From Marinicella sp. (GTDB lineage: Bacteria; Pseudomonadota; Gammaproteobacteria; Xanthomonadales; Marinicellaceae): DNA of 64,000 nt. The notes under the pieces were generated by a model. The model saw only the letters and a list, made by a program, of their open reading frames with translations, was not told the origin of the DNA and did no database searches. The DNA is taken from assembly GCA_965230295.1 (NCBI GenBank), contig OZ246001.1, positions 3,712,001 to 3,776,000 of the forward strand, read 5' to 3'. Below, one piece after another: positions 22,465 to 54,183 of this stretch. Position numbers and translations under genes: made by a program. The first letter of the stretch is position 1. Every line of letters starts with the position of its first letter.

Positions 22465-22466
22465 AA

Positions 22467-24265: not shown

Positions 24266-24326
24266 TACTTTAAACTAAAAGTCAATTTTTCATTTTTTGA
24301 TTGTATTTATTACAAAGGGATTAACT

Positions 24327-27300: not shown

Positions 27301-29210
27301 GCTTCCCAATTCTTGAGGCAAGTAGACAAGCTACATTTAAAATAAACGGACTGTGTTTCAAGGTTATAAGTGGAACGGATGAAAGTCCTGAACACTGTTA
27401 CAAGATTCCGTCTCGCAGCATTAAACCAAATTTTATGGGTGAACAATTACAAAGCTATATTCCTGTCAACGCAACACCACAGGACATTGATAACGATGCT
27501 TATACTGTAAAAACAAATGGAAATTTAATGAAGCTCTGGGGTAACAGTTGGAAAAAGCTCCCAACCAACTATACAGTGACACCAAATACTGAACTTGAAG
27601 TGGAGTTTAAATCCACACTTACAGAACCTGAGTTTAGTGGTGTTGGTTTCATTCACAATGGACAGTCAAATTTATCTAGCACCAGATTTTGGCAATTTTA
27701 CGGTACTCAATCATGGGGTAAACAAGAACATAATGATTATAATTCTGGATCTGGCTACAAGACATACAGAATTAAGATAGGTGATACGTTTACTGGACAA
27801 ATCTCTCACATGGTTTTTGTGACAGACAATGACAATCAACAAGCCGGTCAAAATGTAGTTTTTCGATTGCCTACTTTAATGGAAGGTTCAGGGTCAAGTC
27901 CTTCAGGAACATTAACGTCCACCAGCCCTTGCTCTTTAACTGGTACAAATACCTACTGTGATGTCACCTTAAGTGTTCAAAAGCAAGACACACCTTATTC
28001 CTGTATATGGAAAACGGCTCCTACACTGCAATTGGTTTCTTGTACTTCTGCGGACAGTTGGAATACCAATTGGCAATGGACCAATGTCAATGGACATACC
28101 ATGCAATTACGAGCTCATGACACAACACCACAGAGTGACCCAGGTTGGCCAGGAAATATGCAGACTTTATTCAATGCAGCTCCATTATTGGATGAAGAAG
28201 TTGTTGTTGCTCAACCAGCTGGATCAAATGCCTCTGGGTCACTAACTTCAAACAGTCCTTGTACTTTAATTGGAACAAATACTTATTGTAATGTCACTTT
28301 GAGTGTACAAAAACAAGACACGCCATATTCTTGCATATGGAAAACAGCACCGACACTACAGTTATTTTCTTGTACTTCTGCAGACAGCTGGAACGCCAAT
28401 TGGCAATGGACCAATGTCAATGGTCACACCATGCAATTGCGGGCTCATGACTCATCTCCTCAGAATGATCCAGGTTGGCCTGGAAATATGCAAACTTTAT
28501 TCAATGCTGCACCATTATTGGATGAAGAGGTTGTTGTTGCTCAACCAGCTGGATCAAATGCCAGTGGTACATTAAGTTCAAACAGCCCATGTACTTTGAC
28601 TGGAACAAACACCAGATGTGATGTCACGTTGAGTGTACAAAAACAAGACACTCCATATTCTTGTATATGGACATCAGCTCCATCAATTCAATTAGTTTCT
28701 TGTACTTCTGCTAATAGCTGGGACACCAATTGGCAATGGACCAATGTCAATGGACACACCATGCAATTACGGGCTCATGACACAACCCCTCAGAATGACC
28801 CCGGCTGGCCTGGTAACATGCTAACTTTATTCAATGCTGCTCAATTATTGGATGAAGAAGTCGTTATTGCTCAACCAGCTGGATCAAATGCAACAGGTTC
28901 AATGACTACTACTAGCCCCTGTACATTAACTGGATCAAACACGAGATGTGATGTAACTATTGATGTTCAAAAACAAGGCACTCCTTATTCTTGTATTTGG
29001 AAAACATCACCTACATTGCAATTGGTTTCTTGTTATGCAGCAGACAGCTGGACTACCAACTGGCAATGGACCAATACAGGTGGTCACACCATGCAATTAA
29101 GGGCTCATGATTCAACTCCACAGAACGATCCAGGTTGGCCTGGAAACATGCAGACTCTTTTCAATGCTGCTCCATTATTGGATGAAAAAGTAGTGATTGC
29201 TGTCCAGTAA
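24327..29210 (+). CDS. Large secreted multidomain trypsin/V8-like serine protease with four C-terminal 110-aa repeats
   Basis: Signal peptide MRYLFLFFFISFTSNA; triad motifs VTNAHN, QDYGAI, GQSGSP; beta-rich middle domains. Confidence 0.75.
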   Translation: MRYLFLFFFISFTSNASQLLKPEAFSWEELVELQKDVINNFDDHYLSPQCFSTLESYNGLKRSLTIQTILWKTYVWETYDMPDKYNCIVLYENYEKSNQSHKVLTIEESKSLLSASKGFKFKEKGLYEFSNHINTYNQSTYKSLNRSKTNVDVDYNNKNVFVSDEYTSVKFPLTSAREIGNTVNTQVEKNGYVLSVDHNQTFLYPYNNIVLTQSEHAACNQFGEWSAFMVQWNVSVTNAHNIYTGCQFASFLQQQVSAHLDQNVRLTHYPIMVAANAQVANNYLLNPIAGNNQDYGAIRYYQSFFNPFYIGLTTNLGFQKGDRIRNIGYPMQSVPNNLGMKEDFADYTPLIGGGYNLPQVVFDKRPNNRVWPGQSGSPSFRNNESNAFGMVTLEIIGTDGLGVINGFTPNQVTDILSWMSWNPTGIISYPNNPVQNSTYNLVEVPEFLATVTPINNYRMDGTIEESNKNLEDLITWTSSIDGEFGTGGSVTEEELKTSLSGGWHFITTKIDSNGEQAESNVFINIIKPSGQFTSSGFCIVDLGSSQTNSCQLNITWSVSNTPATSVVWNETTNTEFATGNNGGKSYTATTNTTTFKLYPSDEKIILLDTINAQAKVPTGELTVPSAQCSLQPSPIAPDGTMRNPKATPPGCGTELSWSNVQWASPSIFYRPATGGPWQLLYQVPCQLNGDVCAGSIHTDDYATPELISTSGYEFKLVQFNDANSGNLTAPFTVTAKRFADAYEYDDGWFDLPDNLYNDLDERLLANGGTISNRVELGQTHANHNFHRPAAYDSGIDIDAFDISTSSMSVTPATQVNAKVFNMASGLDVDFEVLCVGSKRTSINAEYKVGVWELPESPTVSNTSGSGFRQITFNSVKFRDYYDGKNNYVAGFICEFNQVRVRRTTGTPGENLTYDFVASLTDQGNNPILDSVAALDPYTYKIELLGENFGTNPSVSLRDNVSGSQPIVYSSDWFHNLGTHVSTHINAGKNFIRFPILEASRQATFKINGLCFKVISGTDESPEHCYKIPSRSIKPNFMGEQLQSYIPVNATPQDIDNDAYTVKTNGNLMKLWGNSWKKLPTNYTVTPNTELEVEFKSTLTEPEFSGVGFIHNGQSNLSSTRFWQFYGTQSWGKQEHNDYNSGSGYKTYRIKIGDTFTGQISHMVFVTDNDNQQAGQNVVFRLPTLMEGSGSSPSGTLTSTSPCSLTGTNTYCDVTLSVQKQDTPYSCIWKTAPTLQLVSCTSADSWNTNWQWTNVNGHTMQLRAHDTTPQSDPGWPGNMQTLFNAAPLLDEEVVVAQPAGSNASGSLTSNSPCTLIGTNTYCNVTLSVQKQDTPYSCIWKTAPTLQLFSCTSADSWNANWQWTNVNGHTMQLRAHDSSPQNDPGWPGNMQTLFNAAPLLDEEVVVAQPAGSNASGTLSSNSPCTLTGTNTRCDVTLSVQKQDTPYSCIWTSAPSIQLVSCTSANSWDTNWQWTNVNGHTMQLRAHDTTPQNDPGWPGNMLTLFNAAQLLDEEVVIAQPAGSNATGSMTTTSPCTLTGSNTRCDVTIDVQKQGTPYSCIWKTSPTLQLVSCYAADSWTTNWQWTNTGGHTMQLRAHDSTPQNDPGWPGNMQTLFNAAPLLDEKVVIAVQ
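27895..29207 (+). repeat. Four intragenic tandem repeats, 330-bp period
   Basis: SPCTL.G.NT.CDVT..VQKQDTPYSCIWK..NWQWTN..HTMQLRAHD..DPGWPGNM..LLDE x4. Confidence 0.95.
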
Positions 29211-30754: not shown

Positions 30755-32116
30755 TCACTTACTCCGTAATTTTCTGCGCTCATATTCCAACTCTTGAGGC
30801 AGGATGACATCTATTTGCTTTTTCCTTATTGCAAGGGCTACAGGGAAGTCTACACAAGCAAGTTTTTTGATGATATTTTCTACTGTATCTTTAAACATAT
30901 TCCAACTAACAGTTTTCTTGTCTTGAAACATTTGAGCACTCCATACTATGTCATCTATGAGAGCTGATAGCTCAGCTTGCATCAATAACAAAATAATTTC
31001 ACCTGGTATCTTTATGTAAGTTTGTTGCCCTGAATTTGCACAGTTTTCAATAATCACCTTTTTGTTGAAGTTTCCATCTAGAACCACTGAATGGTTTGAG
31101 TATCGCTTGCGTAAGGCAGAAGCCAGCTGTAGTAGTTCCCACCAATAAATATTTTCACTTCTAAGGAATAACTCACCTTTACCCAAAGCAATCAAATAGA
31201 GCATCCAAGGCATGTATTCAACGCTAACTCCTTCATCTGTAATGTATGTCTCATAATCATTCAACTTATTGGCATCAAGCCGAGTTTGTTGTAGTAGAAC
31301 TTGCTCAAAATGCTTTTCAAGTATCAGTCTTTCTTTTCTTAAGTGGTCATCAGTAAATTTGAAAAGTTGATCATAAGGAACCGGTTTAACGTGACATGAA
31401 ACTGAGCTCATTTCAGGGAGCTTAATTTCCGTTATATGGGTCAATAATTTAAGCTCATTAGAGGTGAGCAAGTTCAACTGCCTCATTACTGCAAAAACCA
31501 CGGGGGATTCTGCATCAATGGCTTGTTTGTAATACTCTTGTTTAAAAAAAGGATGCTGTACACTTGATCGGCCTATAATCACTCTGGAAAGCAGCTTCTT
31601 GGCCCTGGCTTCAACGACTTGATCAACCAGTTCCAGTGCTTGGTATTCAAGCTCATTTGGATCATCATAAAACAAGTTTTTGAATTTCACATGGTAACCA
31701 CAGGTAGAACATTTCCGCAGAGCCACCTCTGAATAAGCAGACCATATTTGAAAGCATTCGGGACAACGATCCACCAGCACTTCTTTATGGACCGGGCATT
31801 GGTGAAGCCAATGACAATCAAAAGCATAGCTGTGGTAACCAGACCTCATACAACTAACGCAACATTTACTCGGCCTGTACCTTGTTTTTATGGGCTGAAC
31901 ATCACCAAAACTTTGCATTTGATTTGACTTTAAAAAATCCTGCTCAACATCACTTCCCAATCGTGCTAAGCCGTATTTACGCATGGAGGATGATTGTTCA
32001 TTATGACTTGGCTTAGATGGCTTCAAGTAAACGCCTCGATTAGCAATCATGAAGCGTCTGAATTTACCATAGCCACTTTCTCCTGGTCTTCGCATCAGTA
32101 ATCCTGTGTTAAGCAT
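30755..32116 (-). CDS. tniQ: TniQ/TnsD-like target-selector protein
   Basis: PGES N-terminal motif; CVSC..GYH..W..CPVH..L..RCPEC..CSTCG zinc motifs; last gene of the tns operon. Confidence 0.8.
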   Translation of the reverse strand: MLNTGLLMRRPGESGYGKFRRFMIANRGVYLKPSKPSHNEQSSSMRKYGLARLGSDVEQDFLKSNQMQSFGDVQPIKTRYRPSKCCVSCMRSGYHSYAFDCHWLHQCPVHKEVLVDRCPECFQIWSAYSEVALRKCSTCGYHVKFKNLFYDDPNELEYQALELVDQVVEARAKKLLSRVIIGRSSVQHPFFKQEYYKQAIDAESPVVFAVMRQLNLLTSNELKLLTHITEIKLPEMSSVSCHVKPVPYDQLFKFTDDHLRKERLILEKHFEQVLLQQTRLDANKLNDYETYITDEGVSVEYMPWMLYLIALGKGELFLRSENIYWWELLQLASALRKRYSNHSVVLDGNFNKKVIIENCANSGQQTYIKIPGEIILLLMQAELSALIDDIVWSAQMFQDKKTVSWNMFKDTVENIIKKLACVDFPVALAIRKKQIDVILPQELEYERRKLRSK

Positions 32117-33063
32117 CAGCTGACCTTCTTAACGAGGTTTTTAACCAGACCTGACACATGAATGCTCTCATGAATCATTGACCTTAACTGTTCTTCATCC
32201 TCAATTCCATAGTTGAGAAGAAAGTCAGTCAGCAGTATTCTGACCATAGCCACAAAATATTGCATGGGCCAGGACCTTAATTTCAATGGATTCATAAAGT
32301 GTTCACGATATTCTTCCCAGATCAAATCTGACAGTGATGCCAGCTTCCAGTTACCTGGTACTACGTCACTCAGAAAAAACTGTGTATATGACAAACCACC
32401 TTCTGGAAACTGACAGGTATCATATTGACTTAAGCACTTTTTAAGTTCATTAAAAGTGCGAATACCATGCAATCTGAATTCTTGAGTAAAGAATCGCCCC
32501 CTGATCAGCTCATACCTGTCTTCACTCAGGCTTTTGATCAGCTTATTGGAAGCAGCGTCGTTGCCAGCAAACAAAACAAACAAGTTGGCACCCACACCAA
32601 CTAAACCATCATAAAGCTCAGCAAAGGCTTCAAATTGGCTCACATTGAGTCTTTGTAGTTCATCAACTATTAAGACCACTTGTCTGGTACTGTTGGTTAA
32701 AGAAAGCTCGCCTAAGTGATGCAAGATCAGATTTGACATGTCATCTGCTGTGGCTTTCACTTTCAAGTCAAAATCAAGTGCATGACAAATATTCTTAAAC
32801 ACGCCGGCAATGGTTCCAACATCCCTGGGTGCCACTGATATGTATCGGGCAGGAATTTTCTCTCCTATACAGTTGGTTAACTGATTCATGATTTGCATGA
32901 GTGCCCGGGTTTTACCAATGCGGAAAGTTCCGTAGATCGCTGAGCCTGATATACCATTCCATAGACATCGGGTAATCTCATTTTTAAGTGCAGTGATCAT
33001 TGGAGTGTGGATAAAAAACTGACTGTTGTTAAAAATAGGGTGCTCTTCAAACGATGTGCTCAT
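32116..33063 (-). CDS. tnsC: TnsC/TniB-like AAA+ ATPase
   Basis: Walker A GTFRIGKT, Walker B LIVDELQ, IRGRF. Confidence 0.85.
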   Translation of the reverse strand: MSTSFEEHPIFNNSQFFIHTPMITALKNEITRCLWNGISGSAIYGTFRIGKTRALMQIMNQLTNCIGEKIPARYISVAPRDVGTIAGVFKNICHALDFDLKVKATADDMSNLILHHLGELSLTNSTRQVVLIVDELQRLNVSQFEAFAELYDGLVGVGANLFVLFAGNDAASNKLIKSLSEDRYELIRGRFFTQEFRLHGIRTFNELKKCLSQYDTCQFPEGGLSYTQFFLSDVVPGNWKLASLSDLIWEEYREHFMNPLKLRSWPMQYFVAMVRILLTDFLLNYGIEDEEQLRSMIHESIHVSGLVKNLVKKVS

Positions 33064-34928
33064 GATCGATTCCCGCCCTTAATGACATTGGCTTGCCATT
33101 TGATTTTTCTCTTTGTAAAAACCGGCGTTTGCAGCTTTGGCACATACTCATCATCATTTGATGCCACAGATGTAGATTGACTGATATCTTTTATCAGTCC
33201 TGTTAAGCTCAGAGACACTGATGGTAAGTTCTTATGAATGCGTAAATACTCAATAACCCCATGCAGCGGGTCTTTTCCAGAAATGAGCTTTTGATCAATG
33301 AGGCCCCTGATGTATTTCCTGCTATCAATGCTGTGTTTGTAAAGCTGCCATGTTCTTGGTGCTTTTAAGGTACCTAGCTTTTTGCCTTTGGTAGTAATGG
33401 CTTCAAGCTGTCTGATGTCTCTGAAATCATATCGGATGATGATGTCTTTTTTGACCATTGAATAATCAAGTACATTTGGTGCTGAATACCTCAAGTCTTC
33501 AAAATGAACATAGGGGATTCTTTTTTCTGAAGCACGCCAACAAACCTTGACTCTTCGCTCCCGGATGAATGGGTTAGGTTGATTAGAAATCAGGTGATGA
33601 TTCATTCGAATCAAACGGTTACTCATTTGGGCCTGTATCATTGATAGGGGAGAGTGACCACATAATCGATTTTGGGGTTTGTTATTATGCTGGGTGATGA
33701 TCACACTCAGAATATCTTCTAGCGCATTGACAGTAAGAATAGGGGGCTTCTTGGTGTTAATCAAAGATTCTTTTTTGGGGTCATTGGGATGTGAACCAGT
33801 AGTACACGAAAACCGATGTATGTACTTGTTGATGCGATTAAATGCATATTCAACCACATTCCTGGTCTTAGGATGAGCAGGTATACCTAACCTCATCGTG
33901 GCACCCATCTCATTGCAGATAAAATCTTTAATTGATTCAGAGTGATGGCATTGAGCATTATCCAAACTGATGGTTCCAATACCCACATTTCGATATTCAC
34001 TACCAAGGCTACTCGGCAAGCAGGACCCTGGTTCATAAGCCAAGCCAGGTGTGTTGAGTTTTCTGGGCTTCCATTCTTTATTAATGCCTATCAAGACATT
34101 CAATAAGTCATATTGCGTTGGGCTATCAGTGAAACACAGTTTATATGACAAAATACAATCTGTGGCCACATCTATAGCAACAAACAAAGTCATCCTCGAA
34201 ACCCGGTGGGGACTCATGATGCCATCAAATTCAAAGTATGCTGTAGTATGAATGTCTAAAGTCTGTGAATCAATTTGTACTTCATCATAAGCTCTGTCAA
34301 TAGGTGGCCCGACACGTACTCGACTGGTTTCGGTTCTGGGGATACTGAACTTGGCTACAAGCTTGTGAAAATACTTTCTGCAGGTTTCATACCCCAACTT
34401 TTTTTGATCAAAAGGGTACCTGTCTTTGGGCCAGTTTTGATCAGATAAATAGGCAAGAAATTGCCGGTGAAATGAGCTAGGTGTTAAGTTCTCCCCATGC
34501 CTGGCTCTTTTAACATATAGCTTCACAATTTCATTCAGGAAGTCATCGAGTCCTGGTACAGTGTCTAATAATAAGTGAAAGGAACAACGAGCACCAATGC
34601 TGTTTTTAAAATCGCTGATTGCGGCCCTTCTTTTGTCTTTATTCAGCTTGGTCATGGGGATTAATGCAGCGGTGAGAGCAGGGGGCTTATCTGCATCACC
34701 AGCAAAAGTCCTTTTCAACAGTTTAGAAACCGCAGCTGGTGAAACGTTGAACTCTCTTGCAACATCTTTCATTGAGTGACCGTTCACAACTTTAGTAACT
34801 ATCTTGATGTTTCTGATAAACAGTTCTCTTTTAGATGCTACCAATGAACATGGATCTATTTCCAACCATTCATTTACTTTTTTGTAACTAGGAGACGACT
34901 CTAGTCTTTGCTGCCAATTTAATCGCAT
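33060..34928 (-). CDS. tnsB: TnsB-like DDE transposase
   Basis: QIDSQTLD, AIDVAT.CILSY, LDNA, VVEYAF; N-terminal HTH; HNNKP..L.G.SP. Confidence 0.85.
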   Translation of the reverse strand: MRLNWQQRLESSPSYKKVNEWLEIDPCSLVASKRELFIRNIKIVTKVVNGHSMKDVAREFNVSPAAVSKLLKRTFAGDADKPPALTAALIPMTKLNKDKRRAAISDFKNSIGARCSFHLLLDTVPGLDDFLNEIVKLYVKRARHGENLTPSSFHRQFLAYLSDQNWPKDRYPFDQKKLGYETCRKYFHKLVAKFSIPRTETSRVRVGPPIDRAYDEVQIDSQTLDIHTTAYFEFDGIMSPHRVSRMTLFVAIDVATDCILSYKLCFTDSPTQYDLLNVLIGINKEWKPRKLNTPGLAYEPGSCLPSSLGSEYRNVGIGTISLDNAQCHHSESIKDFICNEMGATMRLGIPAHPKTRNVVEYAFNRINKYIHRFSCTTGSHPNDPKKESLINTKKPPILTVNALEDILSVIITQHNNKPQNRLCGHSPLSMIQAQMSNRLIRMNHHLISNQPNPFIRERRVKVCWRASEKRIPYVHFEDLRYSAPNVLDYSMVKKDIIIRYDFRDIRQLEAITTKGKKLGTLKAPRTWQLYKHSIDSRKYIRGLIDQKLISGKDPLHGVIEYLRIHKNLPSVSLSLTGLIKDISQSTSVASNDDEYVPKLQTPVFTKRKIKWQANVIKGGNRS

Positions 34929-35569
34929 AATATTACCTCTGTATCTATGTCTATTGGTTTGTCATGAGAGATGCTTAACCTACTTTGATGTATTAGTCTG
35001 TATAGTGCTATTTCATTAAGGTAAGCATTCATTCGATTATTGATCTGTACCACATCTCCGATGCGTTGTTTGGGTCTGAAATAGAACTGACCTAACAACT
35101 CTTGTTCTTGGTTGTTTGTTGAAATTTCGCTGACATTTGAAAGGGTTCTGATGATGAAAAGCATATTCCTTGCTTTTAGTTCCTGGTCAAAAACGCTTTC
35201 ATTAGTGACCACTTTGAAATCAGCATCATGCTTTTGCCTGAAATGCTCGGTTAATGGAACCACCATAGATTCATCAAATTTACCTTCTGGCTTCAGTTCT
35301 ATTACTTCACGTTTGGTTTTGTATGCCACGTAGCAATCAGGGATATATCTTTTGCCATTTACGAACAACTTAAAAGGCTGGGGCACAAATGAAATAACAT
35401 CTGGGTCAGCCTCCAATAAGGCTGCGTAGAGGAGCTCTGCCAGCGAGTGAAATATCCCAATTTGTGGGAATCTAATGAATTTTTGCAAATAGCAATCAGC
35501 ATTTTTGAGTAATTTTGATGCTGTTTTTACCTGCTGTTTGGCGATTAGTTGTCTTTGTTGAATGTGCAT
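34919..35569 (-). CDS. tnsA: TnsA-like endonuclease
   Basis: SLAE..LEADPDV..FVPQP..YIPD..IELKP (PD-(D/E)xK); GGAG precedes ATG 35569. Confidence 0.82.
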   Translation of the reverse strand: MHIQQRQLIAKQQVKTASKLLKNADCYLQKFIRFPQIGIFHSLAELLYAALLEADPDVISFVPQPFKLFVNGKRYIPDCYVAYKTKREVIELKPEGKFDESMVVPLTEHFRQKHDADFKVVTNESVFDQELKARNMLFIIRTLSNVSEISTNNQEQELLGQFYFRPKQRIGDVVQINNRMNAYLNEIALYRLIHQSRLSISHDKPIDIDTEVILCD

Positions 35570-35787
35570 AATTTGCTCCAAAATAGAAAATATGAATTTT
35601 TAAGCTATTAAAAATTCCAAAAACTTATAAAAATATAAGTTAAACCTACTTTTTTACTTATAAAAATTACAATATTATCTATAAATTCAATAACATACGA
35701 GCTTCAAGCCTATAACATGTTCTGGTAAAATACCTAACATGAAATCATATAAAAAATCGCAAGAAATGATATAAAACAAGATTAAGA

Positions 35788-36675
35788 ATGGGAAAATATC
35801 TAACAATATCAAAAGGTTTAAAAGCAGCAGAAGTAAAGCTTTTTTTAGGTGTTGATGATTATGAATATCGAAAAATCAGAGATTTACTTGAATTCGATAG
35901 CTCTAAGGTTTTTTTCTCTACTATCGAACTTTTAGTTTTTTCAATTGTGAAGATTGTTCTTATAAAAAGAAAAAGTGATGTTGAAATGTTTGAAGGTATC
36001 AAATGGGAATTCTTTTTAGAGTGTGTCAAACAAAATGGCATGGATTACTATTTTGGTGAGGTTTTGTATTTGGATGTAGAGGAAAAGAATGTTTTTCTAT
36101 CGAACCCTACAAGCCAATTTGAAGATCAGTTTGAGCCTTCGTATTTGATAAATTTCAGCGATATTTTTAAGAATTTATATGAGTACTTTTTCGACCTTGA
36201 TGATAGCGAACATTATTCTCAAATCATGATCTCTGATTTCCTGGAAACCAAACAGTATTTTCTAAGAAAATGGATCAAAACAGTATATCCAAATATTCAA
36301 AAAGCCAGCTACTCCCGGAATGATATATTTGTTCTTAGGGTTTTTAAAAAAATTATGGCAAAAGGTCATTCACCATCAGATTTAGAAAACATGGATTGGA
36401 GCGTATTAGTTGATACGCTTGAAAACAATAGTTTTTTGGGGCTGTTTAATTTAATTTTGTCAGTAGATTTAAATCCCGCCAAAAAGTGCATAACAACCAT
36501 AAAATCTATAAATGATTTTGATCCCAGCAATGAATATTCACAGCCGGTCTATCTAAAAAAATTAGTAATTGACCACTTTAACACTTTCATTAATTTAGGG
36601 TGCCAAGGTCATGAAACTAAAACACTAGCCTTCTCAGAATCAAATTTTCTTCAACTAATGAAATTAACAGCATGA
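35788..36675 (+). CDS. Hypothetical protein of two similar halves, possibly degenerate MerR-like HTH units
   Basis: FSTIELLVFSIVK..GIKWEFF vs YSRNDIFVLRVFK..NMDWSVL; divergent from tnsA. Confidence 0.55.
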   Translation: MGKYLTISKGLKAAEVKLFLGVDDYEYRKIRDLLEFDSSKVFFSTIELLVFSIVKIVLIKRKSDVEMFEGIKWEFFLECVKQNGMDYYFGEVLYLDVEEKNVFLSNPTSQFEDQFEPSYLINFSDIFKNLYEYFFDLDDSEHYSQIMISDFLETKQYFLRKWIKTVYPNIQKASYSRNDIFVLRVFKKIMAKGHSPSDLENMDWSVLVDTLENNSFLGLFNLILSVDLNPAKKCITTIKSINDFDPSNEYSQPVYLKKLVIDHFNTFINLGCQGHETKTLAFSESNFLQLMKLTA

Positions 36676-36839
36676 GAATTGGGTTGCTTCGCGACCATAT
36701 TTCAGTTTGCTATTAACAAGCTTTAAATATTCAATTTTGTTACTCTTTATAAAACTTTGTATTTGCTCTTGAATTTTTAATATATTACCCAACAAATAAA
36801 ACAATCCTTTTTGGGTTTTCAACTTATATGGAGGACATT

Positions 36840-36902
36840 ATGTTAGCCAAATTTTTGGATATCCCAACTTTTCTCAAACAGTTGCCAATGTTTGATACCT
36901 AA
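36840..36902 (+). CDS. 20-aa micro-ORF MLAKFLDIPTFLKQLPMFDT with FtsZ C-terminal-peptide-like motif
   Basis: GGAGG at 36830-36834, 5 nt before ATG; LDIPTFL core. Confidence 0.55.
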   Translation: MLAKFLDIPTFLKQLPMFDT

Positions 36903-37130
36903 ATCACGGGATTAAATGAGGAATAATTGAACTCAATAATCTGTGACATCGTTGCAGAATTGAACCTTTTGAGTGGCAACGATAAAGGCAAGTAAACTAA
37001 AATTTGAGATGATTTGGGTGGTACCCTGTTTACACTTCGTGTACGTAGGTAAGTATCAAGAAAAGGTCACAAATTGCTCCTCTCTTTCGTTTCAATCCCA
37101 AGTTACACAAATAGTTAATTTAATTAATAA

Positions 37131-38114
37131 ATGGCAAATACTGGAATTGCAAAGGTACAACACTACGTTCCCCAATTTATTTTAAAAAAATTTTGTACAG
37201 GGAAGAAACCTCAGCTCTGGGTTTACGACAAACATAACGACAGGTGTTTTAAGTCTCACGTAAAAAACATTGCATCGGAAACTTCATTTTATGACATTGA
37301 TATAGATGATACGTCTTATACCTATGAGATTGGTCTAGGTGAGCTTGAAACCATATCCGCTCCAATATTAAAGAGAATAGTAAAGGAAGGAAATATTTCA
37401 TTTTTAAGTGATGATGATAGAGCCGTTTTGTCATATTTCTTTTCTATCCAATTTGTAAGGACAAAGCAACACAGACAAATGTTTAAACATATTCATGAGT
37501 CTTTAGAAGAGTTCCTTTTAAGAGATCATAACGATATTAATAACGTAGAAGGGTGGAGTCCTTTAAACGATCAAACACTCAAATTACATGGCATGCAAGC
37601 TATTGAAAATGCTGTTCAATTTATTCCATACTTCCTCAATAAAAAATGGGTGTTAATGAAAGCAAAACCTTCAAACCCTTTCCTCACATCTGACCACCCA
37701 GTCTGCATGCATAATTCAAAAGATTTTGGACCACGAGGAAATCTTGGTCTTGATGTCCAAGGTATTGAAATTTATTTTCCTATTAGCAAGGATTATTGCA
37801 TAACGATGTATTGCCCAAGCATTGAGAGGGAGTTACTTGAAGGATATGAGTACTATAAAAATGCTTTAGATAAACACCCAGAAGTAGTGCCAATGTTTAT
37901 TGATGAACAAAACGATTTAGAACTATTAGTTGATGGGCTCGAAAACGGGGTCAGTGTAGAGGCCATGCCTGAAAATATTTTATTTATGAATTCACTTCAT
38001 GTTAGGAATTCACACAGATTTATTTTTTCACCAAATAAAAACTTCGAAATGGTGAAAGATATTCTAAATGAACACCCAGATCTTAAAACAGGATCTAAAC
38101 CAGTTTCAAATTAA
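37131..38114 (+). CDS. DUF4238-family protein
   Basis: QHYVPQFILKKF, F.SIQFVRT, FLTSDHPV, IYFPIS. Confidence 0.85.
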   Translation: MANTGIAKVQHYVPQFILKKFCTGKKPQLWVYDKHNDRCFKSHVKNIASETSFYDIDIDDTSYTYEIGLGELETISAPILKRIVKEGNISFLSDDDRAVLSYFFSIQFVRTKQHRQMFKHIHESLEEFLLRDHNDINNVEGWSPLNDQTLKLHGMQAIENAVQFIPYFLNKKWVLMKAKPSNPFLTSDHPVCMHNSKDFGPRGNLGLDVQGIEIYFPISKDYCITMYCPSIERELLEGYEYYKNALDKHPEVVPMFIDEQNDLELLVDGLENGVSVEAMPENILFMNSLHVRNSHRFIFSPNKNFEMVKDILNEHPDLKTGSKPVSN

Positions 38115-38169
38115 TTGCTTGCTTGATTTAGGCAGAAGGAGTGTTTATGATTTTGACTTCACAAAATTA

Positions 38170-38423
38170 ATTCATTTTAAATCATCAGCGATAATGTTTT
38201 CATTAAACAAAGCGTATTTGACATTAACTGTTTTTAGGAAAGGATATGAACCATCCCTTACAATAATTTAGCTTTATAGAAGCATGAGGTTCATAGGTTT
38301 TTGTGCGTTTAAAACTACTTTATTAACATTATCAACTTTGTTTTATTCGAGTTCATGTTTTTTTTGATATTTGAATGCAAAGATTGCAGCTCCAGCACCT
38401 AATAAAGCACCTATAAATAACAT
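38170..38423 (-). pseudogene. Decayed TM-anchored ORF resembling 17818-18708
   Basis: MLFIGALLGAGAAIFAFKYQKKHELE*NKVDNVNKVVLN with several stops; left boundary approximate. Confidence 0.3.
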
Positions 38424-38572
38424 TACCTTTGGGTATATTAATTACTTCCTGTTTTCAGCCCTTCTACAGAACTAATCAATTCATCTATCTTGTTTAACAC
38501 AGTTAACACCTTTATGATATATGTACATAATTTACCATATTATTTGAATTTAACCTAAGCAAGGATAGAACC

Positions 38573-39937
38573 ATAAAAGAAATTTATATTGAAAATTTAA
38601 AAGAATTAACTACACAATTAGATCGGTACAGCGAGAATCATCTTTTTCGAGGTCAAACAGGTCATTACCTAGATAAACATGATGAAGTTAATATCCCAAC
38701 ATCCTTTGAACGGCATGGCTGTATTCCTCCTCTCATGCTCAAATGGACTCACTATTCCAAAGCAATTATTCGTGCATTTAGTGGAGAAGATTACCATGAT
38801 ATGGATATTGGCCTCTCTCAGGCAATACTTCAACACTATGGGTGGAGATCATTTTTTATAGACTTGTCTAAAGATGCATATATAGCTTGTTGGTTTGCAG
38901 CTAACAAATATGAAGATGAAATAACTTCATACATGTGTGAGGATTTTGAAGAAAGCCCTGTTATGCTATTTCATAGAAAAGCTTCATATAATGAGTTTAA
39001 AGAAGATGGAAACATTTATATTATTGATACAAGGTACTTTTCAAAAAACAATATTAAAATTCATGATTTAACAGTTTTATCAGACCCTCAAGATAACAAT
39101 AGATTTCAGGTACAATCCGCATGCTTAGTCGAAGCTTTTAATGGTTTTTTACCTGTTGATAGTATAGCTGCACATTTAATAGTAAAACATGAGGTATTAA
39201 AAGAATACTATGTATCCAAGGGTGTAAATAATACTCTTGACATATTTCCTGACAGAAAAAATGATTTTATTTTGAACAGTCTATTATCATTGCCTTGGTA
39301 CAATGTTCCGTCAGGTTCTAATTATTCTATTCCATTTTTTAAACGAAGCTTAGAAATTCCTGAATATGATTTTTCTTTCATAAAACACTTACCTGCTTCA
39401 ATAACACTTTTTAAACCCTTTTGGGTATCTGACCATAAACAGTTAGACAATTTTCCGTTTGTAGACTTTCTATCGTTTAAGGTTAGCGAAAATGACTACT
39501 TTACTGGTAAAAGTGATCAGTTTGATCTGATTGAAGTAAATCAGGTATTACTAGAGAATCCAAAGATTATTATCGAAATCGATGGACTAATAAAAATTCC
39601 TGAGTTTAGTGATAATTGTGAATTTGAAAAGGGGATAGTAGTTGAGAAGATCAACAATAATATTTATTCAGTGTCTGCATTAATAGTAAAACAACTTGGC
39701 CAAGTAGTTACTGGTGTCGGCACAAATAATGGTTGGTTCTATAAAGTTATTAATGGAAACTGGAAAAAGATAAATCATTCAAAACAGTGTCCATGTAATA
39801 ATGATTTAAGACATGAACTTCAATTTTCATTACTAAGAATGTTAAATGAACACTTAAAAGATGAACTAATGATTCCTGAGAAAAATATGAATTTTTCCTA
39901 CAAAGGATTATTAAACTATAGAGGACTATTAAAGTAA
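38573..39937 (+). CDS. FRG-domain protein; frame begins at ATA (non-canonical or lost start)
   Basis: In-frame upstream extension contains LFRGQ; LQHYG..S.FIDLS..IACWFA; AAGGA precedes ATA 38573. Confidence 0.78.
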   Translation: MKEIYIENLKELTTQLDRYSENHLFRGQTGHYLDKHDEVNIPTSFERHGCIPPLMLKWTHYSKAIIRAFSGEDYHDMDIGLSQAILQHYGWRSFFIDLSKDAYIACWFAANKYEDEITSYMCEDFEESPVMLFHRKASYNEFKEDGNIYIIDTRYFSKNNIKIHDLTVLSDPQDNNRFQVQSACLVEAFNGFLPVDSIAAHLIVKHEVLKEYYVSKGVNNTLDIFPDRKNDFILNSLLSLPWYNVPSGSNYSIPFFKRSLEIPEYDFSFIKHLPASITLFKPFWVSDHKQLDNFPFVDFLSFKVSENDYFTGKSDQFDLIEVNQVLLENPKIIIEIDGLIKIPEFSDNCEFEKGIVVEKINNNIYSVSALIVKQLGQVVTGVGTNNGWFYKVINGNWKKINHSKQCPCNNDLRHELQFSLLRMLNEHLKDELMIPEKNMNFSYKGLLNYRGLLK

Positions 39938-40221
39938 GCTGAATTCGATATTATTCAATAAATGATCATTTAATATGGGTTATAACTAATTAAAAATTAT
40001 TGAATAAATTGAAACAATAAATATTGATAAATTAGATGAATAGGGTGTTCATCTAATTTTACAAATAGCTCCTCATGTAGCAATTGAATATTTTGAATGT
40101 CTACAACCGCTAGTTTTCTACCCAATATAAAATACATTATGTGAGTCTAAATTAACTACTTCTTTAGAGCTTAGCTTTAAAGTTTAACTGTTGTATCACT
40201 ACCGGTGCACTTGTTAGCTCT

Positions 40222-41130
40222 TTACTTGGCATGATTTCTAGCTAAATGTTTATTTAGGTTTTTGGGGTTAAGTTTAACGTTACATTCTGGGCACGTTATA
40301 TATTCTACGTTGCGTTCCTCTCTTCCGGCTCCACTAAGTTTCGCCATACTTGTTGTCAACGCGGTATCATTAGTTGTATTACGCTCAGCTGGAGATGGAC
40401 CAACAGTCAGCCTTGTTTTGATACTCTCGAAAGCTTTTTTACATACCGACTCTATTCCTGGACTCAGCTGTATAGCTGTTACCCCCATTAATTCCAAATC
40501 ACGCATTATAACTGGACGTTCTTTGACTGAAATTGTGTACTTAGTTAAGAAATGCATACCATTTTTTTCATTAATTCGGATATGGGCTTCAGGGTCTTGG
40601 GTGTTAGTAAACCAGAAAACACCTTGTTGAAGCATTTGCTTATGATTGCCCCGAAAAGTTGGCCTTAGTAAAGTGACATGTTGGGCTGGGTCGTCAAAGT
40701 TGTAGTTAGGTTTATAATAATTTGACCACAACTGCTGATTAAAACTGTAAATAGCCACTTCATCGGATTGTGGTTCAAATTGGTCTACACCCTCTAAAGC
40801 AAAATATGCAGCAATATATGGAGAAAAGGTCCAATCTAGCAAAGGTGTTGGAAATCCATTATGTTGAAGAAATGCCAAAAATTGAGCCATGTCAATAGGA
40901 TTACTTAAGTCTCTTCTAGTGCCATCCCATGCCTCTACTTGTTCTTGGATTTCCGGAATCAACGTTCTAAAGTAAAAAAGGAAATCTTCAGTTGTGGTAA
41001 TCAGCTTTGTTCGATGAAGAGACGTAGTTAAAAACCATGCTGAATTGGATTGCCCTCGGTATATAAGGTTCTTCCTATCTTGGATTTCCATTCCAACGAT
41101 CTCTTTGTATTTATCCCATGATATTTTCAT
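40222..41130 (-). CDS. FRG-domain protein with C-terminal C2H2-type finger (integron cassette 2)
   Basis: IYRGQSN, LQHNGFPTPLLDWTFSPYIAAYFA, QQGVF; CPEC..HLARNH. Confidence 0.88.
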   Translation of the reverse strand: MKISWDKYKEIVGMEIQDRKNLIYRGQSNSAWFLTTSLHRTKLITTTEDFLFYFRTLIPEIQEQVEAWDGTRRDLSNPIDMAQFLAFLQHNGFPTPLLDWTFSPYIAAYFALEGVDQFEPQSDEVAIYSFNQQLWSNYYKPNYNFDDPAQHVTLLRPTFRGNHKQMLQQGVFWFTNTQDPEAHIRINEKNGMHFLTKYTISVKERPVIMRDLELMGVTAIQLSPGIESVCKKAFESIKTRLTVGPSPAERNTTNDTALTTSMAKLSGAGREERNVEYITCPECNVKLNPKNLNKHLARNHAK

Positions 41131-41145
41131 CCACGATCTCTTTAG

Positions 41146-41217
41146 TGCTAACGCCCGCATTTGCGGCTGATTTGGAGCGCAGCGGATAACCAGTCCGACA
41201 ACATGCGCTTGTTAGGT
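41146..41217 (-). other. Integron attC site (72 bp)
   Basis: Minus strand: ACCTAAC-AAGC-GCATGTTG...CAAATGC-GGGC-GTTAGCA; R''/L''/L'/R' boxes with extrahelical G; R'' overlaps the cassette stop. Confidence 0.92.
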
Positions 41218-42279
41218 TTTACTTTCAATATGGCTCTCACAGTTTGTTGTAATTATATCAACCAATGAATGGATGTCGTCTTCATTGTAATTCACCTGAT
41301 CAAGAACCCATGGGAAAGCTTTGAAGTGCTCAAACATTCCATACTCTCTTTGCGTTTGCTCTATGATAGGTTGAACAGGTAAAGAAGGGAATTGTGGAAT
41401 TATCGAAGTAAGCTCCTGTGGAATGCTTTTGGGGCTAGATATGTCAGCAATAACGAACTTTGCTAAAGACGCTAGAGTAATAATGGTTTCTGTTACATTT
41501 CTACTACTCGGCCCCTCGAAATCAAATAGCACTGGCAGGTAGCCCTTATTCTGAAGTTCTTCTTTTATAGTATCGAGGATGGCCTTACGTTCTTCTGTGA
41601 ACCGTCCAAGTATGAGAACAACTTTTGATGTAATTGTATCTATTACGTCTCTTATCTTTGAATTATTAACCAATAAAGATATAAATTGTGCCAACTCAAT
41701 GGTTGGAACTGTGATGCATGTTCCTACCTCTTCGATGTAGATATTACTCTGCCGACTACCATCTAGAACAAGGTCCCAAGCAGATACACCATAAACCCTA
41801 GCTCCATCAATTACCGTATCTGTAAAATCGGTTTTTACCAAACTCATATTACTTAGTTTTGTGAAAATAAACTTGGAACCTGAGAAATTCGTTTCCTCTG
41901 CACTACAGTATGAAAGATCGGCGTTCGTGAAATCACACTCATGAAATTCTGCTGAGCCTATTTTTGTGACAGCAAGACTAGCACCCTCAAAACTACAGTT
42001 TTGAAAGAATGAAAAGCAAATATCTGAAAAATTGAGATCGCTACCGGCTAGAAAACAGCGTATAAAATATGAATTTCTTGCGGTTACTCGATTTAGATTC
42101 ATGCAGGACAAATTATAACCAGTAAATTCTGGCATGTCGTAAGTTGATTCATAAGTGTGAACGTCTTTCTCGAAATCAATATCCGATAGGTCTGGCTTTA
42201 TGTTAGGATTTCCATTTCTCCAAGCATTCCATACTTGAGGGCCTTTTTTAAATATTTCGACATGTTCTGCTACTGCCAC
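41212..42279 (-). CDS. Pentapeptide-repeat protein with C-terminal TIR/NDT-like domain (integron cassette 1)
   Basis: WNAWR..PDLS, A(D/N)L.. pentapeptides, KVVLILGRF..FDF..FVIADIS.PKSIPQEL; AAGGAGG RBS. Confidence 0.85.
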   Translation of the reverse strand: MAVAEHVEIFKKGPQVWNAWRNGNPNIKPDLSDIDFEKDVHTYESTYDMPEFTGYNLSCMNLNRVTARNSYFIRCFLAGSDLNFSDICFSFFQNCSFEGASLAVTKIGSAEFHECDFTNADLSYCSAEETNFSGSKFIFTKLSNMSLVKTDFTDTVIDGARVYGVSAWDLVLDGSRQSNIYIEEVGTCITVPTIELAQFISLLVNNSKIRDVIDTITSKVVLILGRFTEERKAILDTIKEELQNKGYLPVLFDFEGPSSRNVTETIITLASLAKFVIADISSPKSIPQELTSIIPQFPSLPVQPIIEQTQREYGMFEHFKAFPWVLDQVNYNEDDIHSLVDIITTNCESHIESKT

Positions 42280-42293
42280 TTAACCCTCCTTAA

Positions 42294-42320
42294 ACCCAAC
42301 TATTTATTATATGTGCATTA
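42294..42320 (-). other. attI-like site (GTTGGGT core) with no adjacent intI
   Basis: CATATAATAAATAGTTGGGT directly before cassette 1; core nearly complementary to that cassette's R'' ACCTAAC. Confidence 0.6.
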
Positions 42321-42487
42321 ATGTTATATATCGTCATATTTGTGTATTTATTGTATCCTTAATTTTACTATATTGGGTGATGTGCCAGATTTGATGAAAT
42401 TCACCCATTAAACCAGTTTAACATATTGATTTTATTAATTAAAAAGTTCTTGTTTTTGAAATAGAAGAGTAGGGCAGTTTGATAATC

Positions 42488-45400
42488 CTATCCAGGTGAT
42501 TTGTATATCTTTATATTCATCATATCTTTGATACTTGCAGTAAATGAACTGGTATGCTTATGATCAAAATCATAAAACCCTTTCATGCTGATATGTAACC
42601 ATGATATTACTGACCCTTTCCGAATTGAATCAATGACCTCTATTTTTTCTGCTTTGGTTTTCAAATTATGAATGTGATTGGACAAAAACAGATAATTCCA
42701 GAGCACGATGGCATTTTTGATCAGGGCAGTGCATGAAACTACTTTGAGCATTTCTCTTTGGGAGCCAACAAAAAGTTTCCCTTTCCTGGCAAAGAATACT
42801 GCATCAGATAATTTTTGACCTAACTCTACAATATTGAGCTGTTTTTGGATTGATCTTCTCAATTTTTTACTATCAATGTACTCGAGTATGAATTTCGATT
42901 TAATCAACCTTCCGAATTCCCTGATTGCCTTGTAGAGCTCATTTTGTTTTGGGCTTGAAGATATGATTTTAAAGAGGTGTGATGGTGAATAATCACCTCG
43001 TTTAATGGTGGCCATAAATCTTAAAATGTCATCCCAATTCTTCAATATCAACTTACGATTGATTTTAGTCTTGGGGGCAATTGGCGAATCTGAATATCTT
43101 CTCAATGACTTAGTTTCATAGGCATAAATAACCTGCTTATTAACTTGTTTTATACGTGGGGCAAAAGACACATCTAAAAAATGCATGCCAGCAAATATGG
43201 GCTCCGTGTAACCATGAGTATCAGTTGAGTGGATGTAATCATATTTTCCCTCACGAAAAATTGAAGCTCTTGTTTCAACGATACCATCCATCATGTAAGC
43301 AGCTTCTCGATCTGATGATGTGAGGATATTGACATGGTAAAATGTATGTTTATTGTCAACAAATGAATTCACACTGATGCCTTGCTCTCTTCCATAATAC
43401 TTATACGAATAGTTTGCAAGAATCGAATCAACAGCGACAACCACTTTCTTGCCATCACTGCTCGAATGAATGGTGCCATTAGCATCACTGAATAGGGTAG
43501 GGAGTGGTAGTTTTTTAATAAATTTGCTGATCCTGTTATTAGCTCTTCTTATATTCTTCAACGAAAATCTATTTCTATCCGTTTGTTCAAGAATCTTTTT
43601 TGAAATGCCTCTGGTAGATCTTGACATATCACTATGCCCAATGTTGTTTCCCAAGCTCATCAAAGTGGCATAAATCAGTTTTAAATCAATACTTTCTTTG
43701 GAGTGTTTTCTTGAATGATGCGTGAAACATTCAGAGAATTGAGTGTATTCGTCAATTTCAGCAAGTAGTTCATACAACATTTTAAAACTGGACTCGCTGA
43801 GCAAGTTTGGTATGTACTTAGTAGACTCATAATTAGGCTCATTATCTATTAATCTCCATTTACCACTATCTGAGATTTTCAAGTATTTATTCTTGCCCTC
43901 GATGCAATTCCGGTTGATTCGCTCATAAGTTTTGGTTAGATCTTTTCCAAGTTCATCGAGAACCTTCTCACCATCAGCATATTTCAACAAGCAAACATGC
44001 TCCAATATTTCATTTTTATCTTTATCCCATTGTTCATCAGGTATGAAATATGAGTTGTGTGCTCTGTATTTGTAGGAGTATTTCAAAGTGAGTTCTTTGT
44101 TTCTGATTGCCTCTTTGATATGAGTAAATAGTATGACTTTGAATTTAGTGACGTGTGGATATCCATTGCTGTCATCATTCATATGCTCAAGCTCATGAGC
44201 TGAAAATAAGTGGTTACTGTATTCAATGGTTTCTTCACTTTTTGCATAACTTGCAATTGCGTCATACAAGGCCTCTTTAGAGTTTTCTTGATCAAAAACA
44301 AGGACCTTTAATGATGAAGACAGGGCACTTTGCATTGACTTTGATAATTTAAAAAGCGCAAGATAGTATTCTAGTTTTGATTTTGAGTTTTCAACATCCT
44401 CATGAATCCTGGTTGCATGCTGTTCAAAGTCGGGAAATAACTCTCTGAGATACGATTTAACTTCCATCAAGGCCTCTTGAACTTTCATATCTGAGGAATA
44501 TGTTTCATCCTCCAGTATTCCTTCAATCTTTTCAAATCCTTTCTTTGCACTGAAACCAGTAGCAACCGCAGCTACACTTGATGTATGAAGGTCTTTTTCA
44601 CCTTGCTGTTTGATCTCGACCTCAAGTCTCCTTGCTTGGTGCATATCGCGTATAACACGACGAAGTATTGAATCAACAGCATGATCTTGCCTTTGAAAAA
44701 ACTGATCTTGAACAAATGCGACCAATCGTAACCTCAGCATGGTTTTATTCTTCAAATTTTTGATTTGATATAAATCCGTTTTATAAATCCATTCTGAAAA
44801 GTGTTTCACGGCTTCTGGAGTTATTTCAAGTTTTTTGATCAATGGTTTTATCGTGAAAAAAACCTCTTTGATCGCTCCAAGGATCTTGGCATTTTGATTT
44901 AAATCTCTATTAGCTGGTGATTGGCTGATTCGTTTGTATTCTGTGAATGAATTCACAGCCTCTGGATCTTCTAATAAATTTTTTAGAGCAATCTTCTGTT
45001 TCAAACTGATGTTATTGCTTAATCTTTCCATGATCATGGTTTCGTATTTCAAATAAGCATCATTAACAATAGATTCTAATTTGATGAAGCGTGGAATTTC
45101 AATCTTGCGACCCCACAGAAAATTGATCAATGTAAAAATCGTTTCTTCTTTAGACTTTTGTTTATCGACTTGTATGCTGGCATGTGATCTTAAATCACGG
45201 TCATACTCTTTGCTGAATGATCTCCAGCCTTTTAGCTTAAGGATAATCTTTTGATGCCGTTTGTATGTTTTGTAATCATAATGACTCAAATCAACCGCAC
45301 TCAGAGCTCCTACAATCATTTCAGCCCTTGTAATATCTCGTTTTCTAAGTCTTAGTTTTTTTAGATCAAAAAACCTTCCTTTTGACCTAAAATAAGCCCA

Positions 45401-45562
45401 TTGGAGTAAAAAGCCTACCTTGTTAACCGAGCTACCCAATGAGTAAACAAACTTTCTGTTAACGGCATTTATACAAACATAAACTTTACGTTCTTCTGAG
45501 TTGAATTTGGGAATTTCTCGGAACCTTCTTTCATGACCTTTGGTTAATATTTTATTTGTCAT
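42488..45562 (-). CDS. tnpA: Full-length Tn3-family transposase
   Basis: 1024 aa; SSSDGKK, HSTDTHGYTE..FA, FAPRIK, QLNIVE, NAIVLWN. Confidence 0.93.
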   Translation of the reverse strand: MTNKILTKGHERRFREIPKFNSEERKVYVCINAVNRKFVYSLGSSVNKVGFLLQWAYFRSKGRFFDLKKLRLRKRDITRAEMIVGALSAVDLSHYDYKTYKRHQKIILKLKGWRSFSKEYDRDLRSHASIQVDKQKSKEETIFTLINFLWGRKIEIPRFIKLESIVNDAYLKYETMIMERLSNNISLKQKIALKNLLEDPEAVNSFTEYKRISQSPANRDLNQNAKILGAIKEVFFTIKPLIKKLEITPEAVKHFSEWIYKTDLYQIKNLKNKTMLRLRLVAFVQDQFFQRQDHAVDSILRRVIRDMHQARRLEVEIKQQGEKDLHTSSVAAVATGFSAKKGFEKIEGILEDETYSSDMKVQEALMEVKSYLRELFPDFEQHATRIHEDVENSKSKLEYYLALFKLSKSMQSALSSSLKVLVFDQENSKEALYDAIASYAKSEETIEYSNHLFSAHELEHMNDDSNGYPHVTKFKVILFTHIKEAIRNKELTLKYSYKYRAHNSYFIPDEQWDKDKNEILEHVCLLKYADGEKVLDELGKDLTKTYERINRNCIEGKNKYLKISDSGKWRLIDNEPNYESTKYIPNLLSESSFKMLYELLAEIDEYTQFSECFTHHSRKHSKESIDLKLIYATLMSLGNNIGHSDMSRSTRGISKKILEQTDRNRFSLKNIRRANNRISKFIKKLPLPTLFSDANGTIHSSSDGKKVVVAVDSILANYSYKYYGREQGISVNSFVDNKHTFYHVNILTSSDREAAYMMDGIVETRASIFREGKYDYIHSTDTHGYTEPIFAGMHFLDVSFAPRIKQVNKQVIYAYETKSLRRYSDSPIAPKTKINRKLILKNWDDILRFMATIKRGDYSPSHLFKIISSSPKQNELYKAIREFGRLIKSKFILEYIDSKKLRRSIQKQLNIVELGQKLSDAVFFARKGKLFVGSQREMLKVVSCTALIKNAIVLWNYLFLSNHIHNLKTKAEKIEVIDSIRKGSVISWLHISMKGFYDFDHKHTSSFTASIKDMMNIKIYKSPG

Positions 45563-45831
45563 TATGATATAATCTATTTCTTAGACTTAGTTATTTTAAA
45601 TTAAAAAACAGTCTTTTTCGTTACCGTTTTTCCCATTTTTGGGAAGGCAATATTACAGTATACATAGCCAGAGAGCTGATTTTTTTGTATTGTACAATAC
45701 AATTTTTTTCATCCATATTCTCTCCCAAAGCACTCATCAATTTTTACAAGCCAGTAACATAAGATTGACTCTTGAAGTCTTAATATTTATGCATTGTACA
45801 AAACAATATTATTTGAGTTTATAATGAAAGA

Positions 45832-46629: not shown

Positions 46630-46642
46630 TAGCTAGAGAAGT

Positions 46643-46855
46643 CTATCTGCTGTGGCATTCGCTGGCACAGTAATAACATCCATCTACATTTGCATAATAC
46701 CTTTTAGCCTCAAGAATAGCACTTTGACAATTGGGATGAACACCCAAAAATACCTGATTATGCGGTAAAGGTAACCTGTTGCAGTGTCTGTCTAAATTAT
46801 GAACTTCGTGTTCCCCGGTTGCTTGAGCATTTTTATTTACACAAAATCTTGGCAT
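46643..46855 (-). CDS. Small Cys/His-rich protein
   Basis: VNKNAQ.TGEHEVH..C..LG...CQSA..DGCYYC..CH; paralogue at 346-559. Confidence 0.8.
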   Translation of the reverse strand: MPRFCVNKNAQATGEHEVHNLDRHCNRLPLPHNQVFLGVHPNCQSAILEAKRYYANVDGCYYCASECHSR

Positions 46856-47408: not shown

Positions 47409-47416
47409 GTTTATTC

Positions 47417-47447
47417 TTGACTCTATAGTAACTATAGATATTAAACT
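47417..47447 (+). promoter_or_regulatory. MerR-type promoter/operator 1
   Basis: TTGACT, 19-bp spacer with CTATAGTAACTATAG dyad, TAAACT. Confidence 0.9.
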
Positions 47448-47476
47448 GCAAACTTAATAAGAACAAGCATATTTTC

Positions 47477-48364: not shown

Positions 48365-48444
48365 GTTAGATACTGCAACAATACTGAACGACTTGATACA
48401 ATATGAGTCAAAACATAAATACGACAATTAGACATTTAGATTTC

Positions 48445-48777: not shown

Positions 48778-48860
48778 ATCTTTATTAATTAAAAGAACGA
48801 TGTCTCGACACGGCTTTGTGTCGGTGACCTCATTGTATTTTTAAAGATTTAGGAAAACAC

Positions 48861-50168: not shown

Positions 50169-54183
<4,015 letters not shown>

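Follow-up and report, generated by a model that had tools for sequence, protein, structure and literature searches.

FtsA, ZipA and other partners dock at the conserved C-terminal peptide of FtsZ. Small blockers of Z-ring function are encoded by mobile elements, namely T7 Gp0.4, Kil, DicB, SulA and MciZ; to our knowledge neither these nor KilR copies the FtsZ tail. Oligomerisation is said to give the FtsZ tail its high avidity, a point attributed to Du et al. 2015. In the available text of a study on tail peptides, E. coli FtsZ fragments 354-383 act as growth inhibitors with predicted binding to FtsA, FtsZ and, weakly, ZipA, and the KD of ZipA for a tail fragment is given as about 20-35 μM (PMC10769210).

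The window, i.e. the whole stretch of 64,000 nucleotides analysed, comprises bases 3,712,001-3,776,000 of the single 4.0-Mb contig of a genome of 4,008,074 bp. It contains a 20-codon open reading frame (micro-ORF) whose predicted product resembles the FtsZ tail. The features at and around this frame are, in positions of the window:

30755 to 35581, minus strand: four overlapping genes, tniQ-like, tnsC-like, tnsB-like and tnsA-like, a putative Tn7-like core by gene order and sizes.
35788 to 36675, plus strand: orphan gene for a 295-aa protein, upstream of the gap and divergent from the tnsA-like gene.
36676 to 37130, no strand: AT-rich gap of 455 bp with the micro-ORF.
36830 to 36834, plus strand: GGAGG, resembling a Shine-Dalgarno sequence and separated by the 5-nt spacer ACATT from the ATG at 36840.
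36840 to 36902, plus strand: 20-codon ORF plus stop (ATG at 36840, TAA at 36900-36902), product MLAKFLDIPTFLKQLPMFDT.
36855 to 36884, plus strand: codons for LDIPTFLKQL inside the micro-ORF, the match to the FtsZ C-terminal peptide.
37131 to 38114, plus strand: DUF4238 gene, candidate anti-phage (Pfam DUF4238, E = 7.4e-46; PADLOC DUF4238-Pers, E = 3.2e-12).

An earlier note on this DNA had described GGAGG-N5-ATG opening a 20-aa peptide in an otherwise empty intergenic gap. The first statement is exact and can be read directly from the sequence, which provides the micro-ORF with a ribosome site and a start at a workable spacing. An alternative in-frame ATG at 36828 would give a 24-aa ORF; no ribosome site is present there. 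From stop to stop the frame has just 48 open codons. The second statement is borne out as well, since 36676-37130 carries no ORF of at least 90 aa, no tRNA and no Rfam family at the gathering score. We found neither a consensus promoter nor a terminator in the gap, and no copy of it elsewhere in its own genome. Profile searches assigned the micro-ORF product to no Pfam or PHROGs family, and at 20-24 aa it bears no FtsZ domain; the only FtsZ_C match of the genome is located elsewhere. If the frame is a coincidence, the spacer would probably have a usual role, that of leader of the DUF4238 transcript or of its promoter region.

Other accounts of the gap were tried and rejected. A structured RNA was dismissed with a fold z-score of -1.54 (7/100 shuffles were as good) and, in Rfam at E <= 1, two snoRNA-model noise matches only. 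A transposon end was dismissed as no repeat array was found; a comparison of the gap with the candidate left-end regions by 11-mers turned up nothing but scattered AT-rich matches and a single 12-mer that includes a mismatch. Read-through into the DUF4238 gene was rejected, for the two share a frame, yet 7 stops lie between them.

The host encodes a single FtsZ of 392 aa, adjoining lpxC, with the C-terminus ...NDDYLDIPTFLRNQLD and the tail DDYLDIPTFLRNQLD. All seven core residues (LDIPTFL, 7/7) are identical in the micro-ORF. In the flanks, the residue ahead of the core is F where the host has Y, and the one behind it is K where the host has R, so that LDIP[AT]FL plus a basic residue reads LDIPTFLK in the micro-ORF and LDIPTFLR in the host FtsZ; the Q-L that follows the basic residue in the micro-ORF matches the host tail once one residue (N) is skipped. 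The resemblance to the FtsZ C-terminal peptide that the earlier note had claimed from E. coli and B. subtilis is thus real, and it is closer than claimed, the host-genus tail having the same T and Q-L. Within the host genus the ftsZ tails read were DDYLDIPTFLRNQLD in 23/23 cases; in the seven tails read from two other genera of the family, T is replaced by A and Q-L by Q-A. The micro-ORF therefore carries the host-genus variant (T, Q-L). In a six-frame translation of the genome the patterns LDIP[AT]FL, DIP[AT]FL and IP[AT]FL[RK] occur twice each, in ftsZ and in the micro-ORF. Across the family, LDIP[AT]FL was matched in 40/44 genomes, in nearly all of them once and in ftsZ; the extra matches are the micro-ORF and an FDIPAFF in a broken frame of genome G018, and G013 and G023, assemblies that are less complete or more contaminated, have second matches on other contigs.

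Despite the shared residues, the micro-ORF is, judged from its bases, not a recent copy of the host gene, because 5/7 core codons differ synonymously from host ftsZ and the flanking DNA is unrelated to 29 ftsZ tails (6-17/30 bases identical upstream, 4-11/30 downstream). The host encodes FtsA and a ZipA C-domain. As a separate observation, MinC_C was not found in the 98%-complete host genome (G000), with the same search matching 6/14 control genomes; a Min system may be absent from this organism.

We determined how often such a configuration would arise by chance. Nothing about the match stands out by ordinary alignment statistics: a tblastn search of the genome with the FtsZ tail scores it at E = 1.7, level with an unrelated sequence. 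Judged from the 2,520 permutations of its seven residues, LDIPTFL is expected 0.018 times per genome, and LDIP[AT]FL outside ftsZ about 0.036 times. At random positions the fraction with an in-frame ATG within 12 codons and no stop between is 0.19; it falls to 0.0087 with an ATG plus a 4-mer ribosome site and to 0.00052 with an ATG plus GGAGG. For a scan taken as about 250,000 windows, or about 4,000 genome equivalents, these figures amount to about 145 chance motifs, of which 27 would have a start; requiring a loose ribosome site as well leaves 1.25, and requiring GGAGG leaves 0.075. The ribosome site by itself is weak evidence for a gene, because 187/331 of the GGAGG-N4-8-ATG sites genome-wide open frames of <50 aa, and four control pentamers precede such short-frame starts in the same range; a Shine-Dalgarno sequence and an ATG before a short frame are common by chance in this genome and have low predictive value.

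We lean towards the view that the micro-ORF is an unselected and probably untranslated frame lying where an AT-rich spacer separates two cargo genes of a mobile-element island, its likeness to the FtsZ tail being a coincidence that a very large scan would have picked out. Several observations run counter to this. The full GGAGG cuts the scan-wide expectation to the 0.075 given above; T and Q-L are the host-genus variant, invariant in the 23 tails read; and viral contigs, as described below, have an excess of the motif that includes N-terminal cases spaced from Met as in the micro-ORF. The flanking aromatic and basic residues would by an estimate from residue frequencies lower the chance about 100-fold, these flank features having been chosen after the match was seen. 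Overall, the odds of chance over a genuine origin for the micro-ORF configuration come out at about two to one, in a weighing that assumes about 1 real motif gene per gigabase of viral DNA (an estimate) and few of these as stumps or free peptides. Most likely the micro-ORF is no real gene, though there is an appreciable minority chance that it is something new.

Relatives of the locus were searched for in several collections. The 2.6-kb region around the gap has no DNA relative in 43 other genomes of the family, and the gap had no match in plasmids (blastn). For the peptide there was no candidate among the 26-84 aa proteins of a library of 5.8 billion clusters, 0/17 candidates at E <= 10 among its 85-2000 aa proteins, and no relative at E <= 0.001 among 1.84 billion representatives, with a query of 30 aa that included 10 upstream codons; tblastn at E <= 10 found none in phages or plasmids. 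The pattern [LF]DIPTFLKQ occurs at 6 places in 185,579 species genomes (3 in long unrelated frames, 3 in tiny frames), where by a rough estimate about 7 would be expected by chance; none of the 6 is syntenic with the micro-ORF locus and none is an FtsZ. In metagenome contigs F[LF]DIPTF[LF] was found in at least 118 stretches; among the matches listed (81 in 80 loci) a single one belongs to an FtsZ tail, the others being random frames, and none of these 81 resembles the micro-ORF beyond the motif. The earlier note had suggested a tBLASTn and synteny search for conserved micro-ORFs, and this came back empty in family genomes, species genomes, metagenomes, plasmids and phages. Such a result is weak evidence, an absence of evidence and not evidence of loss, because none of the loci seen was truly homologous.

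The gene upstream of the gap had been called regulator-like, a label that we could not substantiate: the 295-aa protein has no match in Pfam, NCBIfam, PADLOC or PHROGs, and its best Atlas score is 0.87. One relative was found in the 5.8 billion clusters (P0002, 80% identical, on a contig of 4,756 bp). The locus of the gene was found neither in the metagenome collection scanned nor in plasmids (tblastn). An extension of the protein into the gap was considered and rejected, as both homologues end at the same residue. The claim that this gene is divergent from a tns operon holds for its orientation to the tnsA-like gene, whereas the tns labels themselves score weakly. Between the two divergent genes, at 35620-35670, lie two copies of ACTTATAAAAAT, 33 bp apart and the first of them within a palindrome; the pair may be an operator for divergent promoters.

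Downstream of the gap lies the candidate defence gene. In the available text of PMC9122126, a single DUF4238 protein protected E. coli against T7, and the published DUF4238 system is a single gene. A search of 400 other genomes of the class with the DUF4238 protein of the window gave nothing at E <= 1e-10. The evidence is against the micro-ORF being a partner gene of DUF4238: a relaxed FtsZ-like motif occurred within about 1.5 kb of the DUF4238 gene in 0/6 related loci of the family.

The mobile-element setting is well founded, the window being a mosaic of mobile elements from about 8 kb on, with a Tn3 transposase fragment, a resolvase and an integrase. In the Tn7-like core, the tnsA-like protein matches the TnsA-like N domain with 24.9 bits, below the cut-off of 26.5; the 315-aa tnsC-like protein matches AAA_22, the 622-aa tnsB-like protein has an IS481-like match at E = 2e-5, and the tniQ-like protein matches TniQ_IF at E = 5.7e-4 and PDB TniQ.1 at E = 0.065. 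The tnsB-like and tnsC-like proteins had no PDB match, and no TnsB relatives were found in genome contigs. A plausible left-end repeat array for the element lies at 22475-22615, and no inverted right-end partner was found right of the tnsA-like gene in the window or in the 100 kb beyond its right end.

Further observations concern the island at large. Repeats of about 20 bp with the core TACAACTAAAGTGC form arrays in both orientations at 22390-22625 and 23355-23443, which meet at about 22465 and resemble adjoining ends of Tn7-like elements; the forward array is a candidate left end for the element with the tns-like genes at 30755-35581. An ORF of 1,637 aa at 24297-29210 belongs to no Pfam, NCBIfam or PADLOC family and contains four copies of a 330-nt tandem repeat (27891-29180, 78-83% identical); next after it comes a 2OG-Fe(II) oxygenase gene, both lying between the tniQ-like gene and the candidate left end. 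A Tn3-family element at 40043-46745 is bounded by 35-nt inverted repeats (40043-40077 and 46711-46745, 71% complementary), with a Tn3 transposase (42488-45562), a pentapeptide-repeat gene and an SprT-like gene, and with an FRG-domain gene (40222-41160) that matches the candidate defence family PDC-S15. A metal-resistance block at 47004-61546 encodes a MerR regulator and a cation-diffusion facilitator alongside two outer-membrane/HlyD/RND efflux operons; CusF-like and heavy-metal-binding domains occur in one of the two operons.

An unplanned result came from viral contigs, in which motifs of this kind were counted:

[LF]DIPAF[LF]R (CGN codons): 46 viral-contig loci; reversed-peptide control 5.
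[LF]DIPTF[LF]R (CGN codons): 34 viral-contig loci; reversed-peptide control 8.
[LF]DIPTF[LF]R (AGR codons): 3 viral-contig loci, two matches being in a true FtsZ.
[LF]DIPTF[LF]K: 9 viral-contig loci.

The FtsZ-tail motifs are 4-9 times commoner than the reversed-peptide controls (46 vs 5; 34 vs 8). They are located at N- or C-termini or in linkers, on MT-A70 methyltransferases, a helicase-like protein, a DUF6900 protein and several unknown small proteins. The motif-bearing loci run from L177 to L273 (e.g. L181, L186, L215, L179, L210, L208, L205 and L214). Among the 46 [LF]DIPAF[LF]R loci, 12 share ...DDGLDIPAFLR... near the C-terminus of long frames, and all three of these 12 that were scanned (3/3) matched an MT-A70 DNA methyltransferase. 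In five of the 46 the protein ends 4 residues past the motif (two homologous proteins of about 110 aa, one of about 68 aa, one of about 72 aa and one DUF6900 protein). Two of the 46 carry the motif just after the start Met, one matching helicase families in PHROGs and the other phrog_11903, and six carry it elsewhere in frames of at least 75 aa. Sixteen form three recurrent groups of short frames that look like wrong-frame readings, and five are other short frames. The 34 loci with T and R include 11 with LDIPTFLR in frames of at least 79 aa, and here an N-terminal motif is found in L252, L258 and L269; L252 and L269 share residues after the motif, and L258 repeats the start of L252, its locus ending 4 residues past the motif. 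The residues that follow the viral motif vary (RR, RRQ or RKQAD). In the viral proteins with an N-terminal motif, the distance from Met to motif is that of the micro-ORF.

The over-representation against reversed controls indicates that mobile elements do use the FtsZ-tail motif, N-termini included. A second micro-ORF suspected in L224 was rejected as a chance match, sitting inside a 328-aa frame in another phase. No named phage relatives were found for two of the small tail-bearing viral proteins. In literature outside subscription journals we found no description of phage FtsZ-tail motifs, no occurrence of the string IPAFLRR and nothing relevant on an FtsZ tail mimic, decoy, prophage or short linear motif; the string DIPAFLR occurs, among the matches listed, for the division machinery itself and in a review of bacterial degrons.

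The viral proteins suggest an origin that is unlikely but credible: the ribosome site, start and 20 codons could be what is left of a larger mobile-element gene with an N-terminal FtsZ-tail motif, the body of which was lost in an exchange of cargo modules. The stump might still be translated and would not be under selection. Viral proteins with the motif 4-8 residues after Met provide candidates for the kind of gene, i.e. L191 (helicase-like, phrog_16), L188 (phrog_11903), L252, L269 and L226; L252 and L269 also have an HPDC stretch in common, and in the tblastn alignment of L191 with the micro-ORF the two Met residues coincide. The strong ribosome site would be accounted for if a real gene once stood here; the island itself is a modular patchwork. 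However, the gene body has left no trace. After 36902 all three forward frames are broken, none downstream being joinable to the micro-ORF, and the only longer frame, 36973-37182, begins 70 bases downstream. Nine viral motif proteins compared with 36600-38800 by tblastn matched at the motif only, and no full-length protein with the N-terminus of the micro-ORF was found in two protein libraries.

The earlier note had favoured a decoy, which we consider unlikely: the 20-aa peptide would be translated and would compete with FtsZ for FtsA and ZipA, slowing or blocking division when the island genes are expressed. The core LDIPTFL is complete, its flanks are conservative and its variant is that of the host genus; the targets FtsA and ZipA are encoded by the host, GGAGG stands at a workable spacing and the micro-ORF adjoins a candidate defence gene (DUF4238). 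If the peptide is made, the mechanism would be straightforward and, by analogy, partly precedented, because free C-terminal FtsZ fragments inhibit growth of E. coli. On the other hand, the searches revealed no conservation and no promoter consensus, 0/6 related DUF4238 loci have the motif, and the viral motifs ride on larger proteins, with no viral short frame demonstrated as a free peptide. A monomeric peptide would also need high levels, because ZipA binds tail fragments weakly (KD about 20-35 μM). In a broader version, of which we are equally doubtful, the translated micro-ORF would be the minimal form of a wider and apparently undescribed copying of the FtsZ docking peptide by phages and mobile elements, perhaps matched to the host, with the free competitor stalling division. 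A link of such a decoy to transposition or defence, as the earlier note had proposed, is pure conjecture.

That the micro-ORF is the captured 3' end of ftsZ from a related bacterium, now decaying in the island, is very improbable: 20/21 core bases equal the ftsZ tail of one genome of the same genus (L022) and the peptide has the genus-specific T and Q-L, but the core codons fall within the synonymous scatter of the genus, so that 20/21 is not diagnostic, identity to the 29 ftsZ tails collapses outside these 21 bases to the 6-17/30 upstream and 4-11/30 downstream given above, none of these tails aligns over its last 60-100 bases with 36800-36950, the ORF begins 5 codons ahead of the motif and extends 8 codons beyond the FtsZ stop, and none of the 6 matches to LDIPTFLKQ in 185,579 species genomes is an FtsZ.

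With coincidence as the preferred reading, the micro-ORF is at present a singleton without support, and its value is that of a lead. An active peptide, if one is made, would be the first natural inhibitor to copy the partner-docking tail of FtsZ, and it would offer a ready-made, host-tuned probe for the FtsZ-FtsA/ZipA interface, an antibiotic target. The excess of the motif in viral contigs is the more solid by-product and would matter for how phages engage the division machinery.

In comparison with the FtsZ C-terminal peptide, the core LDIPTFL is common to host FtsZ and micro-ORF, and the flanks are conservative. FtsZ carries the motif at its extreme C-terminus behind a tubulin-like domain and a disordered linker, whereas the micro-ORF has neither and places the motif 5 residues from the N-terminus of its 20-aa frame; the acidic residues before the FtsZ motif are replaced by A-K, and one residue (N) is absent after it. 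The phage carriers of the motif (MT-A70 methyltransferases, a helicase-like protein, DUF6900 and unknowns) share with the micro-ORF LDIP[AT]FL plus a basic residue. They are larger proteins of roughly 68 to over 600 aa, and several are conserved as families, whereas the micro-ORF stands alone and is without relatives. KilR, as far as the available source text describes it, is a small protein encoded by a mobile element that blocks Z-ring function, as the micro-ORF peptide would. The laboratory C-terminal fragments of FtsZ are, in the available text of PMC10769210, short free tail peptides, as the micro-ORF product would be; those fragments are man-made, 30 aa long and expressed from plasmids, whereas the predicted micro-ORF peptide would be natural and 20 aa long.
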